From Escherichia phage 241, in sequence record OR924452: DNA of 64,000 nucleotides. One strand, written 5' to 3'. The position numbers and the translations under genes were made by a program. Every line of letters starts with the position of its first letter. Position 1 is the stretch's first letter. Below are positions 3,535-63,302 of this stretch, one piece after another. The notes beneath the pieces were generated by a model, which had not been told where the DNA came from, did no database searches, and saw only the letters and a program-made list of their open reading frames with translations.

Positions 3535-3618
3535 ATACCACACGAACTTCCCCGTCGCCTTCAATCCATGGAGGCGACGTATAATAACAGCCTGCATTAA
3601 CACAAACCGAGGATCGCT

Positions 3619-8897: not shown

Positions 8898-10523
8898 TCA
8901 TGCGTCTTTACCACCAAAGTTGCCGCCATTATCCTCCAGTTCCGGTTTTATATCAATTGGACCAGGACCAGAAGTAGATACCGGAGTTGCCCCAGCGCGT
9001 GATGCAGCACGACCAGCACCTTCAGCATATTTGATGTTGCCTTCAATAGTCTGCGCCACCGACAACTTATCACAAACTATTTCACTAGCCAGTATTTTAG
9101 GCACTTTTAAAGTATTGGAAACTTCCAACATCTCACAGATGATACGCATCACGTTTTGCGCCTGAATTTCGGCCAGCTGTGAAAATTTCATCAACGCCGT
9201 GCCAGCAACCACATTGGAGTAGTTCGATGAATGTAGATGATAGACCTCACCTGTCTTGCGCTGAACTTCAGTCCCACCAATGGTCAGGTTGTGATCACGA
9301 CCAACATAGTAACGTTTGTCAAACATCGTCAGATCATAATGATCTTTGACTGATTTATTGACCACGTCCCCGTCAGGAAGCATCTGCTTATAAGACCCCG
9401 AGGAGTGCATCCAATGGAGACGTTCCCCGCCTGGTGTGTCATCAACCTCCATGATATGCCCTGACCGAGATGCCATGACATTGTTGTAAGGATAACGAGA
9501 CCCGCCAGCAGAAGGAACCGACACCTCTCCTGTGTTATCAATATCTTGAACACGCCCAGAAGGAGGCGGAGTTTCCTGAACTTTTGGTGTACGATCAGGG
9601 ATTGGCTCAGACCATTTACCATTTTGTTGTGTAGGAGCCGCCGATGCTGTCGTAGCAGGACCAGGCCAACGATAACCCAACACAGATGAGCGGCTGAAGC
9701 GACTCACCTTCACAGAATCTGATTGGTTGCCTCCAATACACCAAACATAATTGGCATCGAATTTCTGTACAAACGCAACGTGTCCAAATGTTGGGTTGTT
9801 GCCACGACGGAATACAACAACTGCGCCGTAACGGGGTTCTGACAAAGGGGAACCCCATTGCAAATATGAACGAGCCAAAGCCGAGCGCGTTGAAGTGTAT
9901 CCTGCTTGGATCAACACCCATCCCACAAATGAAGCGCACCAGCTGACTTCATCTTCCGAAGCGCCCAAAGATGTTGTCTTGTGATATTCCAAAATCCTTG
10001 GGTTATTATTGAATTTGCCAGAATATTCTTTGACACCTAATTCACCACGAGCCACTGTCATCCATTTCTCGGGATCATAACCGTCCACAGGCGGTTGAGG
10101 TTCTGGTTGTGGGTCGTCTTCAATCTTGACAGGAACATTTTCAACGGCGTTATATTTCTGTCTTTCTATAGATTGAACAACCTGGCCCAGCGCCAACGGG
10201 TTTGTGTCTGAACCATCCGTTGGTGTCGCCGCTGGCCAAACCCAGGCGATACGAATATTTTGGTATGCTTCATCCAAAGCAAATCCCATAACATCCGACC
10301 CGACTGTAATACCCGTTGGAGACCAGCCTAAACCTGCCGAGGAGGCGTTGGATGCTGGCATGAGCATTTTACCCCAAGGCAATAATTCGGTAGGTAAGAG
10401 AGTGGTATCTTCCGTGTGTACGCCATAGATGCGCACAGCGACGCGCCCGTTCTGGTCGGGATCATTCACGTCTTCAACGCGCCCGTAAAACCAACGCAAG
10501 TTGTCTAACATATTGAAACCCAT
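8898..10523 (-). CDS. 5: baseplate hub / tail-associated cell-wall hydrolase, gp5-like, with a CHAP/NlpC-P60-type domain in place of the T4 lysozyme domain
   Basis: N-terminus RWFYGRVEDVNDPDQNGRVAVRIYGVHTED resembles the gp5 N-terminal OB domain; central region has a Cys...His pattern (SWCASFVGW ... GHVAFV) typical of CHAP amidase/peptidase domains. Confidence 0.6.
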   Translation of the reverse strand: MGFNMLDNLRWFYGRVEDVNDPDQNGRVAVRIYGVHTEDTTLLPTELLPWGKMLMPASNASSAGLGWSPTGITVGSDVMGFALDEAYQNIRIAWVWPAATPTDGSDTNPLALGQVVQSIERQKYNAVENVPVKIEDDPQPEPQPPVDGYDPEKWMTVARGELGVKEYSGKFNNNPRILEYHKTTSLGASEDEVSWCASFVGWVLIQAGYTSTRSALARSYLQWGSPLSEPRYGAVVVFRRGNNPTFGHVAFVQKFDANYVWCIGGNQSDSVKVSRFSRSSVLGYRWPGPATTASAAPTQQNGKWSEPIPDRTPKVQETPPPSGRVQDIDNTGEVSVPSAGGSRYPYNNVMASRSGHIMEVDDTPGGERLHWMHSSGSYKQMLPDGDVVNKSVKDHYDLTMFDKRYYVGRDHNLTIGGTEVQRKTGEVYHLHSSNYSNVVAGTALMKFSQLAEIQAQNVMRIICEMLEVSNTLKVPKILASEIVCDKLSVAQTIEGNIKYAEGAGRAASRAGATPVSTSGPGPIDIKPELEDNGGNFGGKDA

Positions 10524-11030
10524 TAGTCAATTAGAATCATGGGTTATTTATGGCGGGGATTTGAAATCTGTCGAATAGTAATATTATAGGAAGCTCTGCT
10601 TCCGTTCAACTTTATTCTTTTCGTTTCTACTCGCTGAAGCTCGTAACACCGCCTTGACAGGCAGTCCCATTCCAATGCCATGGAGGCATAAAGGCGAGGA
10701 AAATACTGTACACCTCAGAACATGCGTAGAAAAGGATTATTTTTGCTTCAAAACAAATTCAAACCCCAATTTACACAACACTTACTTCAGCAACAACGGT
10801 GTTATAGCAATTTAAGGTTAAACGTTCCTGTCTTAACCTATAAAACAGGTAAGCAAAGAAAACCCCACATTACGTGGGGTTGGAAGATTTCTTGGACAAA
10901 CGTATCTTTAGTGTCTCTGTTAGCAAATCAAGATGCCAAGGCATCGACTCGCTTATTTCAAATATGCTATAGCCATGTGCCTTTAATTCGTCACACATCA
11001 CAAAGTAGGAGAGTAAATCAATTTCAAAAA

Positions 11031-11834
11031 TTAAATGAAAATTTCAGTGACACTGTTAAATTTGACTTCATGTTCTTTCCCACACGAAGGACATTTAATT
11101 TTCGTCGCGTAACGGATACGAGGAATCTTTTTAAAGAAATCGTCGGATATATCTTGAACAATCTCAGATTCAATATTTTCCCCCACCCATTTAACAAATT
11201 CATCTTTGACACGTTGACGTTCTTTAGCAACATCAGGTGCTATGCCAGGCTCTGCCGGATTCTCTACTTTCCAAACCTGACCATCATCGTCATACAAACA
11301 ATCAATAAATGTCGCGATCATTTGCTCCACAGATGATGCTTCGTTGAGCACTGAGGCGTCCGAGAAGGACGGTTGACGCATCTTGATGTGATAGCCACCA
11401 GGGAGGTCAAATGTTTCCCTGAAGCCTTCTGGGGACACGCATTTCACTTGGTTGAGGGGGATCGGTAAAACAAGTTCTTGACCACATTCTTTAAGGCCAG
11501 AAACTGGTTCTTCACCTTCATTTGTGTCGGATGGAACTTTGTTGTTACATTTGTATCGTATCTTCATGACCTCGCCGATAGATATACAGCGCATCTTTAA
11601 AAATACTTCTTCAGTAACACCGATTGGCAGTTTACTAAAGGGAACCCCAGCGTCAACACAACTATCAAACAGTTGCTCCAGCGTCGCTACACGTTCACTC
11701 ATAGGAGTGTTCGGATCAGCAACCTGAAGTAACATGGTCTGTTGCCCTGCTGTGAAAGCGCGGTATTTAATCACCGTCGGCCAGAAATCACTTTTGTGTG
11801 TTCTCTCAGTTTTGGGCAATGATGGTAAATTCAT
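11031..11834 (-). CDS. late structural protein, probably baseplate-associated; C-terminal CPSCGKEH zinc-ribbon-like motif
   Basis: GGAGA RBS before ATG at 11834; T4-type late promoter TATAAATA about 29 nt upstream; adjacent to gp5. Confidence 0.5.
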   Translation of the reverse strand: MNLPSLPKTERTHKSDFWPTVIKYRAFTAGQQTMLLQVADPNTPMSERVATLEQLFDSCVDAGVPFSKLPIGVTEEVFLKMRCISIGEVMKIRYKCNNKVPSDTNEGEEPVSGLKECGQELVLPIPLNQVKCVSPEGFRETFDLPGGYHIKMRQPSFSDASVLNEASSVEQMIATFIDCLYDDDGQVWKVENPAEPGIAPDVAKERQRVKDEFVKWVGENIESEIVQDISDDFFKKIPRIRYATKIKCPSCGKEHEVKFNSVTEIFI

Positions 11835-11883: not shown

Positions 11884-12408
11884 ATGCACGCGTTCTGTTT
11901 CAGTAAAGTTGGAGAACAACTTACCATTAATTATCCGGATACAAATACGGATTTCTTTGTATTGCTAACGGATTTCGCAAATAAATTGGGGATCAAGAAT
12001 ATCGCCATGACTGTGGACGATATGAAATTTGGTCGTCTGGGTGTAAAAGATTTATTGAATTACGGATTCAACGTAATCATTGTCGATCAGACATACAGCC
12101 CAATTGACGAGGAAGATGTTATTCCAGTTTGGGTTCAACGAGACATAAACACTCTGGATAAGCATTATCCCGATTGTGTCATCATTGGCGAATTAATACC
12201 ATATTTTCATAAACGTCGTCGGCTTGAATCAATTAAAAGTTATTTTCAAGATAGCGATGACGGATATAAAATGGATGTCCTTACGAGCGGTTGGGTTGTG
12301 AAGAATACCACAGGCAATGCCGACCGAATTACTTCCCGTCTTTATGAATATGTTAAAGAACGGGATTATGAACTGGAGAACAATAATGCCAAACGTAGAA
12401 CGCGCTGA
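11884..12408 (+). CDS. hypothetical protein (174 aa)
   Basis: ORF diverging from the late gene; GAGGA RBS. Confidence 0.45.
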   Translation: MHAFCFSKVGEQLTINYPDTNTDFFVLLTDFANKLGIKNIAMTVDDMKFGRLGVKDLLNYGFNVIIVDQTYSPIDEEDVIPVWVQRDINTLDKHYPDCVIIGELIPYFHKRRRLESIKSYFQDSDDGYKMDVLTSGWVVKNTTGNADRITSRLYEYVKERDYELENNNAKRRTR

Positions 12409-12871
12409 TATTCAGCAGGTACAAGACGTCATCCTTCAACGCCTCCGCGCCGTGATCACAAATGAAAAGGGAGAAATTGCGCCAGGGTTTGAAGGCGCAT
12501 TCGACAGTTTCGTTGCCGATGACCAGGGGAACCCCGTTGTACAAACGATCGCTGGCATGATTATGCTGAATAGCGAATTTATGGCCGATGGTAAAATCCA
12601 TTATTCTCCCAATCTCAGTGTTGACGGAGAATCTTTGGCTTCCGAAGTGGTTGATTTAACGGTTGCCGTTGGTGAGTTGGGTTATGTTTTGATGGTTTGC
12701 ACCGCGCATTATGTGGACGCCAACGGCCATGTGTCATATGGTGATGAAGCGCGGGGAATCAAACGTCATGTGGATACTGCGGCAGTTCTGCAACAGATCC
12801 GCCAGATGCAAGACAATATGGATTCCAAACCCCGCCTGATTTTGCCAGATAGTAAAATCGTGACAAGATAA
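12386..12871 (+). CDS. hypothetical protein (161 aa)
   Basis: GGAGA RBS before internal ATG at 12386 (track ORF starts at 12317). Confidence 0.45.
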   Translation: MPNVERADIQQVQDVILQRLRAVITNEKGEIAPGFEGAFDSFVADDQGNPVVQTIAGMIMLNSEFMADGKIHYSPNLSVDGESLASEVVDLTVAVGELGYVLMVCTAHYVDANGHVSYGDEARGIKRHVDTAAVLQQIRQMQDNMDSKPRLILPDSKIVTR

Positions 12872-60434: not shown

Positions 60435-60468
60435 GAGGATAGAGCAATAATACCCTATCCCCCTTTAT
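60435..60468 (-). terminator. terminator hairpin with AATAAT loop; one of two near-identical intergenic elements
   Basis: GAGGATAG-agcaataatacc-CTATCC with flanking T-tract on the minus strand; followed by the shared TTTATTGAAGAACG. Confidence 0.5.
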
Positions 60469-60478
60469 TGAAGAACGA

Positions 60479-63244: not shown

Positions 63245-63274
63245 GGGGAACGGGCTAATAATAACCCATTCCCC
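63245..63274 (-). terminator. terminator hairpin with TAATAATAA loop; second copy of the repeated intergenic element
   Basis: GGGGAACGGG-ctaataataa-CCCATTCCCC, T-rich flank on the minus strand. Confidence 0.5.
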
Positions 63275-63302
63275 TTTATTGAAGAACGCAATCGCAGTCA
63301 GA

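Follow-up and report, generated by a model that had tools for sequence, protein, structure and literature searches.

Introduction

Transcripts of the bacteriophage T4 lysozyme gene e that start upstream mask the start site of the gene, whereas the transcript from the late promoter does not. In the T4 late genes e, soc and 49, which are subject to such dual-promoter control, the late promoter lies near or in the hairpin arm opposite the arm that carries the ribosome-binding site. A comparable arrangement is seen upstream of gp5, the tail lysozyme gene of Escherichia phage 241 (sequence record OR924452), of which a stretch of 64,000 nucleotides, called the window in the following, was analysed. 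Between gp5 and a gp26-like baseplate hub gene, both on the minus strand, there is a gap of 507 nt (10524-11030), and this gap contains a constrained block of ~160 nt with a predicted pseudoknot and several hairpins, which is the subject of this study. Like the T4 e product, gp5 is a cell-wall hydrolase (Gp5_OB and CHAP domains). Unlike in T4, however, the pairing that could mask the gp5 ribosome-binding region occurs in only three of five lineages and is not statistically unusual, the upstream transcript is only a predicted one, and the dual-promoter model leaves the pseudoknot/hairpin domain 90 nt further upstream unexplained.

Three other described systems share features with this block. 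The autogenous translational operator in the leader of T4 gene 32 is also a compact H-type pseudoknot upstream of a gene, followed by an unstructured A-rich stretch, but the pseudoknot described here lies upstream of the main (late) promoter, is joined to two more hairpins and stands ahead of baseplate genes, and there is neither sequence similarity nor an Rfam hit. The putL/putR sites of HK022 and the nutL/nutR sites of lambda are, like the elements described below, two to three paralogous structured elements per genome that are co-oriented upstream of genes and followed by terminator-like hairpins; again, no similarity in sequence or structure and no Rfam hit were found, and the terminal hairpins are not present in all copies. 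For distant relatives of T4, antitermination has been proposed as a mode of delayed-early control (PMC3184105). Finally, the PeSL/PmSL cassettes of T4-like phages (PMC4122927) are intergenic and resemble the locus in that a terminator (here T1, see below) is closely followed by promoter-like boxes. PeSLs are short, numerous, located in hyperplastic regions and linked to gene shuffling (PMC4122927), whereas the block is ~160 nt long, highly structured and conserved across genera at only two to three fixed positions. Membership in the PeSLs was rejected, since the 64-kb window contains a single copy and 150 kb of Vi01 two full ones.

Vi01-like phages (Kuttervirus and relatives) are widely used in the biocontrol of Salmonella, E. 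coli O157, Klebsiella and Dickeya, and according to the CBA120 genome paper, it was not possible to identify their promoters and regulators of the early and middle phases (PMC3184105). An RNA-like element ahead of gp5, gp6 and gp45 would be a handle on this missing regulation and is a candidate for a new Rfam family.

A constrained block upstream of gp5 with a predicted RNA fold

Over positions 10300-11300 the window is 99.9% identical to the Salmonella phages Marshall, Maynard and Mooltan and 99.6% identical to Vi01; as judged from this comparison, it is a Kuttervirus genome (Vi01-like, Ackermannviridae). A previous inspection of the letters of the window (the sequence-only reading) had pointed to about 500 bp of DNA before gp5, and this gap between the gp5 and the gp26-like open reading frames (ORFs) is real. 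It was left blank in Vi01, CBA120 and most of the ~280 related GenBank genomes; a few records have one or more tiny hypothetical ORFs in it and some a terminator. The gap aligns over ~90% of its length and with ~74% identity to Taipeivirus (Klebsiella/Serratia), Limestonevirus (Dickeya), Agtrevirus (Shigella) and related phages; its alignability spans four to five genera and its conservation equals that of the flanking genes. For the comparison across genera, 11 genomes of six lineages were aligned on the gene-sense strand, and variability within the genus was counted over 16 distinct Kuttervirus sequences. The following features were distinguished in the block and in the spacer that precedes it on the gene-sense strand:

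10745-10852, minus strand: fast-evolving spacer, 108 nt
10583-10744, minus strand: constrained block (~160 nt)
10690-10744, minus strand: 5' part of the block, with the A-tract/T-tract motif AAAAATAATCCTTTTCTAC (10744-10726), hairpin H0 and CCUCGCC (10699-10693)
10718-10706, minus strand: predicted hairpin H0, CUG...CAG (10718-16 with 10708-06)
10666-10689, minus strand: candidate H-type pseudoknot S1/S2
10648-10665, minus strand: predicted hairpin H2, ACUGCCU-GUCA-AGGCGGU
10629-10644, minus strand: predicted hairpin H3, ACGAGC-UUCA-GCGAGU, with tandem G.A/A.G mismatches (10642-10641 opposite 10632-10631)
10583-10628, minus strand: A-rich linker (10628-10604), predicted hairpin H4, GGAAGC-AGA-GCUUCC (10603-10589), and TATAAT (10588-10583)

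Within Kuttervirus the spacer has 0.27 variable sites per nt, which is near the level of third codon positions, and it is 0.50-0.59 identical between genera. From 10744 on, variability falls sharply, with 2 variable sites in 55 nt, and the block as a whole is ~8-fold less variable than the spacer. The rates are 0.036 variable sites per nt in its 5' part (10690-10744), 0.033 in the core (10629-10689) and 0.16 in the A-rich linker; no variable site was found in H4 and TATAAT (10583-10603) or in the late promoter that follows. Between genera the core is 0.73-0.88 identical, compared to 0.24-0.49 at the four-fold degenerate sites of gp26, which are saturated between Kuttervirus and the other genera. 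Furthermore, the block is an island of higher G+C content (0.49 vs 0.34-0.40 in the flanks). It is considered non-coding because its sole internal ATG is lost in Taipeivirus and CRW-SP2, because indels of 1-2 nt occur among close relatives and because no ORF is conserved. Strong purifying selection on a non-coding block is thus strongly supported by the sequence comparisons. Two coding readings, a 45-aa ORF on the minus strand (10544-10681) and a 53-aa ORF on the plus strand (10654-10815), were rejected for loss of the ATG, indels and lack of conservation, and the tiny ORFs annotated in SilasIsHot and in Klebsiella phages were rejected as coding for lack of conservation.

A fold model with six helices was built for the minus strand from inspection, RNAalifold and explicit pair counting. 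H0, in the 5' part, shows wobble variation only (U-A/U.G and G-C/G.U). The pseudoknot stretch is the most invariant part of the whole gap and is proposed from compensatory changes and pair counting: in S1, AUGCC (10689-10685) pairs with GGCAU (10679-10675), and in S2, CCAU (10683-10680) in the S1 loop pairs with AUGG (10670-10667), with UGGA as connecting loop. Two compensatory pairs in S1 distinguish the gp5-type (AU...AU) from a gp6-type copy (CA...UG) that is described below. S2 has 4 bp, is paired in 100% of the cells of the alignment and changes from A-U to C-G in Taipeivirus and CRW-SP2. All seven pairs of H2 are paired throughout (100%); two of them show compensatory changes (C-G/U-A and U-A/C-G), 14 of 15 sequences have a U.G pair, and the base of the hairpin alternates between G.U and A-U. 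The conserved U.G pair and this alternation argue that the fold could form only on the minus-strand transcript or on a displaced DNA strand of the same sense. In H3, the pair beside the tandem G.A mismatches covaries from C-G to U-A (ACGAGC/GCGAGU vs AUGAGC/GCGAAU). The A-rich linker is variable, and H4 again contains two compensatory pairs (GGAAGC/GCUUCC, GGAUGC/GCAUCC and GGCUGC/GCAGCC). The H4 stretch can also be read as a sigma-70-like TTGAAC-N15-TATAAT (10609-10583), one of only three matches to TTGAnn-N15-18-TAnAnT in the window.

In the ten gp5-type sequences, the 29 pairs of the model were paired in 290 of 290 cells and six pairs were compensated, compared to 32-49% paired cells and 0-1 compensated pairs in register-shifted controls. 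After addition of the gp6-type copies, 97% of the cells were paired, again with six compensated pairs, and slid controls reached 29-51%. The antisense strand folded no better than shuffled sequence (z = -0.4). Pairing is thus upheld by compensatory and wobble changes, strand-specific and better than in shifted controls, as is generally expected of conserved structured RNA, and the block is likely to contain a functional, strand-specific structure. The proposal of the sequence-only reading that the gap holds a small RNA (sRNA) stands as far as a conserved, strand-specific and covarying secondary structure is concerned, but the structure has no match in Rfam and may belong to a free sRNA or to a leader. 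Indeed, a covariance-model search with Rfam 15 at gathering thresholds gave no hit in the window, and thus no family in the gap, and a permissive search of the gap, of the gp6 and gp45 copies and of the homologous loci of five other genera gave chance-level matches only (E of at least 0.3), whose scores were far under the gathering ones.

Several other pairings and one ribozyme were considered and dismissed. A long-range helix CUCGC/GCGAG proposed by RNAalifold and a closing helix UUUCUAC/GUAGAAA of the minimum free energy fold showed no covariation, are not conserved in Aglimvirinae and were omitted from the model. Pairing of the CCUCC core with the ribosome-binding sites of gp5 and gp6 in the manner of an anti-Shine-Dalgarno sequence showed, by inspection, no covariation across genera. 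The H3 region of Aglimvirinae, CUGAUGAGC-GAA-GCGAAU, recalls the CUGAUGA...GAAA core of a hammerhead ribozyme with tandem G.A by a short stem II, but the Kuttervirus region reads UUACGAGC...GCGAGU, the CUGA/GAAA core positions are unconserved and no Rfam hammerhead hit was found at E <= 1 in the Aglimvirinae loci.

Copies of the block upstream of gp6 and gp45

BLAST revealed a second copy of the 49-nt core in each Kuttervirus genome. The Vi01 copy occupies 133810-133858; it precedes gp6 and has the same orientation relative to this gene. The whole gp6-upstream paralogue (133755-133945, minus strand) comprises the same pseudoknot/H2/H3 core with a long tandem-G.A hairpin as 5' domain and a 15-nt helix-extending insertion in the H3 loop, and is followed by a CTAAATA late promoter. 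In 214 kb of sequence searched for the motif AAAAATAATCCTTTTCTAC, the gp5 and gp6 loci were its sole occurrences. In IMG/VR, a pattern scan returned copies of the gp5 type (A) and of the gp6 type (B) from Kuttervirus, Aglimvirinae and Taipeivirus, in addition to five chance hits; pattern scans of bacterial genomes and metagenomes gave only chance matches among the matches listed and are uninformative on a wider distribution. Two compensatory pairs in S1 (AUGCC/GGCAU vs CAGCC/GGCUG) consistently set A apart from B, and therefore the duplication appears to be older than the genera. Unlike in Agtrevirus and Taipeivirus, the two copies have identical H2 loops within Kuttervirus and within one Aglimvirinae genome; this homogenisation in some lineages points to occasional gene conversion. 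The A-U to C-G change in S2 is present in both Taipeivirus copies.

At a third locus, upstream of gp45 (Vi01 92265-92600, minus strand), only tandem-G.A hairpins related to H3 were found, ACGAGUUGUGAGCUUUGCGAGCAACGAGU and ACGAGCGAAGCGAGU. They lie in a divergent intergenic region of 335 nt with 74-81% identity among four genera, the pairs next to the G.A mismatches again covary from C-G to U-A, and a terminator-like hairpin that follows them is deleted in the Klebsiella (Taipeivirus) phage copy. The G.A-hairpin module of H3 thus occurs twice upstream of gp45 and, in Vibrio phages, once before gp5; in phiMAM1, the copy at gp5 lacks the pseudoknot and carries two G.A hairpins. The hairpin of Vibrio phage K361 is GGGGUGAGCGAAGCGAACCCC, ~30 nt before the gp5 ATG (locus coordinates 3581-3601) and, judging from its position, probably at the very 5' end of the gp5 mRNA. 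It sits between a TATAATTA box and the gp5 start codon and has the GAGC-GAA-GCGA module of the enterobacterial phages.

A covariance model of the core found one copy in the window and both A and B in Vi01, and the gp45 locus gave weak hits only; the positions of the full copies are fixed across genera. The equal distance of the gp5 and gp6 cores to their ATGs (116-165 nt) was dismissed as a coincidence, since the two components that add up to it are not the same and the 15-nt insertion is missing from other genera. Membership of the block in a small paralogous family, with a full copy at gp6 and a partial one at gp45, is strongly supported by these comparisons.

Predicted terminator and late promoter on either side of the block

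The block lies between two predicted transcription signals, which are given here together with the neighbouring genes:

11031-11834, minus strand: gp26-like baseplate hub gene (Pfam T4_baseplate)
10870-11031, minus strand: small conserved protein gene of 53 codons, (M/I)FEIDLLSYFVMCDELKAHGYSIFEISESMPWHLDLLTETLKIRLSKKSSNPT* (PHROG 9633, codon-phase variability)
10851-10881, minus strand: predicted intrinsic terminator T1, stem-loop AACCCCAC-GUAA-UGUGGGGUU (10881-10861) followed by UUCUUUGCUU, found by a terminator scan
10545-10552, minus strand: putative T4-type late promoter CATAAATA of gp5, with 7 of 8 positions matching TATAAATA
10509-10544, minus strand: short late leader and gp5 start region, with the conserved ATG at 10511-10509
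8898-10523, minus strand: gp5 (tail lysozyme; Gp5_OB and CHAP domains, cell-wall hydrolase)

The stem of T1 has 9 pairs, 5 of them G-C, is located downstream of a co-oriented gene and runs directly into a U-rich tract; the loop contains the stop codon of the small gene. Three clades have compensatory variants of the stem (CCCCAC/GUGGGG, UCCCGC/GCGGGA and CCCCGC/GCGGGG), only 1 site varies within Kuttervirus, and T1 is annotated as a terminator in the phages Maynard, Mooltan and Magnus. The sequence-only reading had listed the CCCCAC...GTGGGG hairpin CCCCACATTACGTGGGG and left it without a role; it is indeed present at 10863-10879 (10861-10881 with flanking A/T pairs), and its predicted role is that of a terminator of the gp26/small-gene operon. 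A second hairpin listed there, GGTTAAACG...CTTAACC, is present as well (10816-10838), but it belongs to the part of the gap that evolves fastest, and other genera have not retained it.

An element CATAAATAA noted earlier upstream of gp5 is found on the minus strand at 10552-10544, at a distance of 21 nt from the ATG at 10523 and of 33 nt from the conserved one at 10511, and it includes the putative late promoter. ATAAATA is invariant in all 11 aligned genomes of the six lineages. The -10 element is TATAAATA-like, there is no -35 element and the distance to the late gene is short; perfect TATAAATA boxes also precede other late genes in the window. Vi01 carries genes annotated, by annotation only, as the late sigma factor gp55 (Vi01_103c), Gp33 (Vi01_069c) and gp45 (Vi01_135c), in agreement with PMC3184105. 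T1 is therefore very likely an intrinsic terminator and the box a late promoter of gp5.

Since this promoter is only ~25-40 nt from the start codon, the late gp5 leader would be short, and the long 5' untranslated region proposed by the sequence-only reading is not what the late gp5 mRNA is predicted to have; only pre-late or read-through transcripts could have a long leader. Public records place the gp5 start at 10523 (541 aa) or at 10511 (537 aa). Of these two ATGs, the one at 10511 alone is shared by the different genera, with GG(A/G) conserved 8-10 nt upstream, and the one at 10523 is found in Kuttervirus only. AUGGGUU (10523-10517) is a possible pairing partner of AACCCAU (10545-10539), which overlaps the late promoter (positions -6 to +1). 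In folding calculations, an RNA begun upstream of the late promoter had GGG and AUG occluded, whereas an RNA from ~10539 was unstructured. Analogous pairings are possible in CRW-SP2 (UACCCU/AGGGUA) and phiMAM1 (ACCCUGA/UCAGGGU). Masking of the ribosome-binding site by a long leader, as in T4 gene e, is thus suggestive by analogy.

Possible functions of the block

The terminator, the late promoter and the small gene are ordinary features, and the structured element is a credible new RNA motif; that the gap as a whole is a packed regulatory and coding junction, read in the minus-strand sense, is a reading that could quite well be right. For the block itself, we tentatively prefer a cis-acting leader RNA. 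In such a mechanism the block would be transcribed on RNAs begun upstream of the late promoter, either pre-late or by read-through, and would act in cis as a leader domain, with the pseudoknot, H2 and H3 as a binding platform for a factor common to the gp5, gp6 and gp45 loci. H4, the platform and the AACCCAU/AUGGGUU pairing, which would mask the gp5 ribosome-binding region, would keep gp5 silent before the late promoter is used; the late promoter would then yield a short, unstructured leader, and gp5 would be switched on. A leader is favoured because all copies are co-oriented with the downstream gene and because H4, with the poor U-tract of the gp5 copy, makes a poor terminator. The Taipeivirus gp45 copy has no terminal hairpin, and therefore an RNA made there must run into gp45, which also argues for a role in cis. 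Besides, the gp5 start region is masked in the predicted long leader and not in the late leader, which is a further pointer in this direction.

A number of observations weigh against this interpretation. The block is outside the main gp5 mRNA, since it is upstream of the late promoter, and a scan of the minus strand of the gap with the sigma-70 consensus found no promoter, nor was a convincing one seen upstream of the block. The spacer contains an extended -10-like box TGnTATAAC (10809-10801) as a candidate promoter; TATA(A/T)N is present in 11 of 11 genomes and the box TGCTATAAC is conserved between genera, but three of its positions vary within Kuttervirus. The pairing that would mask the ribosome-binding site is missing in Aglimvirinae and Taipeivirus and, with z = -0.8, is not unusual. 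As for the fold, the z-score of single-sequence folding of the sense strand is only -1.4, and the compensatory events stem from few lineages (~5 clades). S1 and S2 may be alternative folds, because no more than 1 nt separates their 5' strands, which is geometrically tight, and H4 may be promoter spacer DNA, because it is overlapped by TTGAAC-N15-TATAAT. Part of the similarity between A and B is due to gene conversion and is not independent evidence. A literature search found no report of an Ackermannviridae transcriptome or non-coding RNA. A search for RNA-seq-derived contigs by means of the small protein returned genome assemblies only. Among the candidates for a promoter of a block RNA, neither a MotA box nor a canonical sigma-70 promoter was convincing, and a role of the A-tract/T-tract motif as general promoter motif was rejected, as it is confined to the gp5 and gp6 loci.

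Alternatively, the block could be a free-standing gene for a trans-acting sRNA, one of a family of two or three, that ends at H4 and starts from a promoter just downstream of T1 or inside the A-tract/T-tract motif. Such an sRNA could target phage or host RNAs or proteins through an exposed CCUCC region or by titration of an RNA-binding protein. The unit is bracketed by the strong T1 upstream and the conserved H4 downstream, ahead of the late promoter, and it resembles enterobacterial sRNAs, whose 3' ends consist of an A-rich linker and a terminal hairpin. The gp6 and gp45 copies of Kuttervirus end in better terminator-like hairpins (AACGC...GCGUU-UUUGAUU and AAAUGCC...GGCAUUU-AUUUAU), and since they are located in divergent intergenic regions, they need promoters of their own. 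In the gp5 copy, however, H4 is followed by UAUAAUAUU, a poor terminator tail, conservation of the terminal hairpins does not extend to the gp6 copies of Agtrevirus and Taipeivirus, the Taipeivirus gp45 copy has lost its terminal hairpin by deletion, the promoter scan gave nothing, the CCUCC motif is buried in the S1/S2 pairing, and the co-orientation of all copies with the downstream gene is not required of an sRNA gene. We therefore regard an sRNA as unlikely. More improbable still is an element that acts as DNA, either through hairpins of the displaced strand (GCGAAGC-type mini-hairpins, Py-GA-Pu tandem mismatches) that stabilise an R-loop and mark an origin of replication or a site at which proteins of replication or late transcription are loaded, or through (A/G)CGAG iterons. 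CGAG is indeed strongly over-represented on one strand, with 6 copies in 55 nt upstream of gp45, and the conserved GAGC-GAA-GCGA core contains GCGAAGC, which reportedly (Hirao and colleagues) forms an exceptionally stable DNA mini-hairpin. T4 origins are promoter-plus-R-loop elements, of which oriE lies near gene 5 and oriF directly beside genes 25 and 26, and an invariant TTGAAC-N15-TATAAT is present inside the block. The origins of the Vi01-like phages, like their early and middle promoters, are unidentified (PMC3184105). Nevertheless, the C-G/U-A/U.G exchanges, the free variation of loops, the helix-extending insertions and the pseudoknot are a pattern typical of RNA, iterons do not predict that a 5' UGAG is always matched by a 3' CGAA, as seen in four contexts, and neither an AT-rich unwinding element nor a skew change is specific to the block.

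One might also take the gap for ordinary intergenic DNA that is conserved by recent ancestry, or for a mis-annotated or frameshifted coding region. Most annotators left it blank and others called differing tiny ORFs, the thermodynamic z-score is unremarkable and there are no Rfam hits. This explanation has a very small probability and is largely refuted: the synonymous sites of gp26 are saturated and the block is not, the block is 8-fold less variable than the adjoining spacer within Kuttervirus, no ORF is conserved besides the small gene and 1-2-nt indels occur within the block, and compensatory pairs together with ancient paralogues at fixed positions are not expected from drift. The wider form of the preferred leader mechanism, an undescribed structured-RNA family of enterobacterial Ackermannviridae that acts as a shared sensor or binding platform and coordinates pre-late expression of gp5, gp6 and gp45, is a doubtful proposition, and equally speculative are variants in which the platform is riboswitch-like or works by protein-dependent attenuation or antitermination. 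If true, it would be the first regulatory signal for the pre-late transcription programme of the Vi01-like phages. Even if the locus is only a terminator/promoter junction with one or two conserved hairpins, the annotation is corrected for a region that is blank or inconsistent in ~280 public genomes.

A small gene downstream of gp26

The sequence-only reading saw no convincing ORF in the gap, yet the minus-strand ORF that follows gp26 is conserved family-wide and has a clear coding signature. It occupies the gp26-proximal third of the gap and fits another suggestion made there, that of a gene below the ORF cutoff. In the ORF list it appears as 43 aa at 10870-11001; read from 11031, it has 53 codons. 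The frame (M/I)FEIDLLSYFVMCDELKAHGYSIFEISESMPWHLDLLTETLK... is kept in all lineages over the first ~160 nt after the gp26 stop codon and is the sole ORF conserved in all of them. Counted by codon phase, the core has [13, 8, 34] variable sites and the N-terminal extension [3, 2, 8]. Of the 17 sites that vary among the Kuttervirus sequences, 16 are in third codon positions, which gives a third-position variability of 16/54 = 0.30. Between the window and CBA120 there are 7-8 synonymous and no non-synonymous changes, and in the ten N-terminal codons 2-3 synonymous and no non-synonymous changes separate Kuttervirus from Taipeivirus. The product matches PHROG 9633 (43-aa form of the window, E = 4e-29, profile positions 11-49; 49-aa form of Dickeya phage, E = 3e-39, full length; Vibrio K361, E = 7.5e-6) and has no match in Pfam. 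Homologues in a collection of 5.8 billion proteins are all hypothetical proteins of Ackermannviridae. Some relatives have the gene annotated as a hypothetical protein of 42-49 aa, and it is absent from the reference annotations of Vi01 and CBA120. The Vibrio Ackermannviridae K361 and Kuja have the same gene at the same location with an invariant PWH motif. A conserved small protein gene downstream of gp26 is, on these comparisons, very probable.

The first codon of the 53-codon form, AUU (11031-11029), overlaps the gp26 stop codon UAA (11033-11031). At this position Aglimvirinae and Vibrio K361 have ATG (UAAUG), Kuttervirus and Taipeivirus AUU and phiMAM1 AUC. The first canonical start codons are GTG at 11001 and ATG at 10998, and no Shine-Dalgarno sequence was found upstream of either. 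Because the ten upstream codons evolve as coding sequence and the internal AUG and GUG have no Shine-Dalgarno sequence, translation probably starts at AUU 11031 by termination-reinitiation, i.e. stop-start coupling; the predicted N-terminal peptide of this product is FEIDLLSYFVMCDELK. A start at 11001 or 10998, with a product of 42-43 aa, is possible. If the AUU start is true, the gene is a natural example of a non-canonical start codon used in stop-start coupling; its probable start and its absence from reference annotations matter for phage annotation pipelines. A frameshift fusion of gp26 and the small gene was considered unlikely, as there is no zero-frame slippery heptamer and a TGA in the -1 frame five codons upstream. 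Nor does a frameshift-corrected ORF span the gap: 1-2-nt indels are present, and besides the small gene no ORF is conserved on either strand. The 204-aa ORF on the plus strand (10722-11336) to which the sequence-only reading drew attention exists, but is considered spurious because it is antisense to gp26 and unconserved even in CBA120, where it is truncated although the gap is 96% identical; in other genera it is absent.

A perfect TATAAATA late promoter precedes gp26 at 11870-11863. Together with T1 this would make gp26 and the small gene a late operon that is closed by T1, and a single late operon of gp26 and the translationally coupled small gene is strongly supported. As for the function of the small protein, three diverged homologues had weak similarity to PHROG 634, 'baseplate hub assembly catalyst' (E = 0.033, 4.4e-4 and 0.1), all in the same region of the profile, and an alignment to T4 gp51 with hhalign was insignificant (probability 1.4%, E = 0.035). 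This weak similarity and the adjacency to gene 26, which gene 51 also adjoins in T4, are a hint at a gp51-like role, which may be of interest for studies of baseplate assembly. T4 gp51 differs in length, with 249 aa compared to 48-60 aa in the small-protein homologues, and its gene is divergent from gene 26 and not downstream of it.

Other observations in the window and in Vi01

The next gene after gp5 on the minus strand is gp25. In the T4 annotation, oriF (uvsY promoter region, T4 115321) is located immediately downstream of genes 26 and 25, a neighbourhood syntenic to the gap; this would bear only on the improbable reading of the block as an origin or R-loop site. In the Vi01 RefSeq record, 4.1 kb (134831-138942) just past the gp6-upstream element carry no annotated feature. 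A tRNA cluster is mentioned for Vi01-like phages in the CBA120 genome paper (PMC3184105); a search for tRNA and tmRNA genes in the window found none. Two plus-strand ORFs of the window, 11884-12408 and 12317-12871, overlap by 92 nt, and the start of the second differs among public records (locus 3545 in SilasIsHot, 3587 in Maynard and Vi01). Finally, positions 60446-60477 and 63257-63288 (plus strand) form a 32-nt direct repeat, 91% identical and 2.8 kb apart. Each copy is part of a hairpin (GGATAG...CTATCC and GGGGAA...TTCCCC, respectively) followed by TTTATTGAAGAACG, and the two look like related intergenic terminator or regulatory cassettes.

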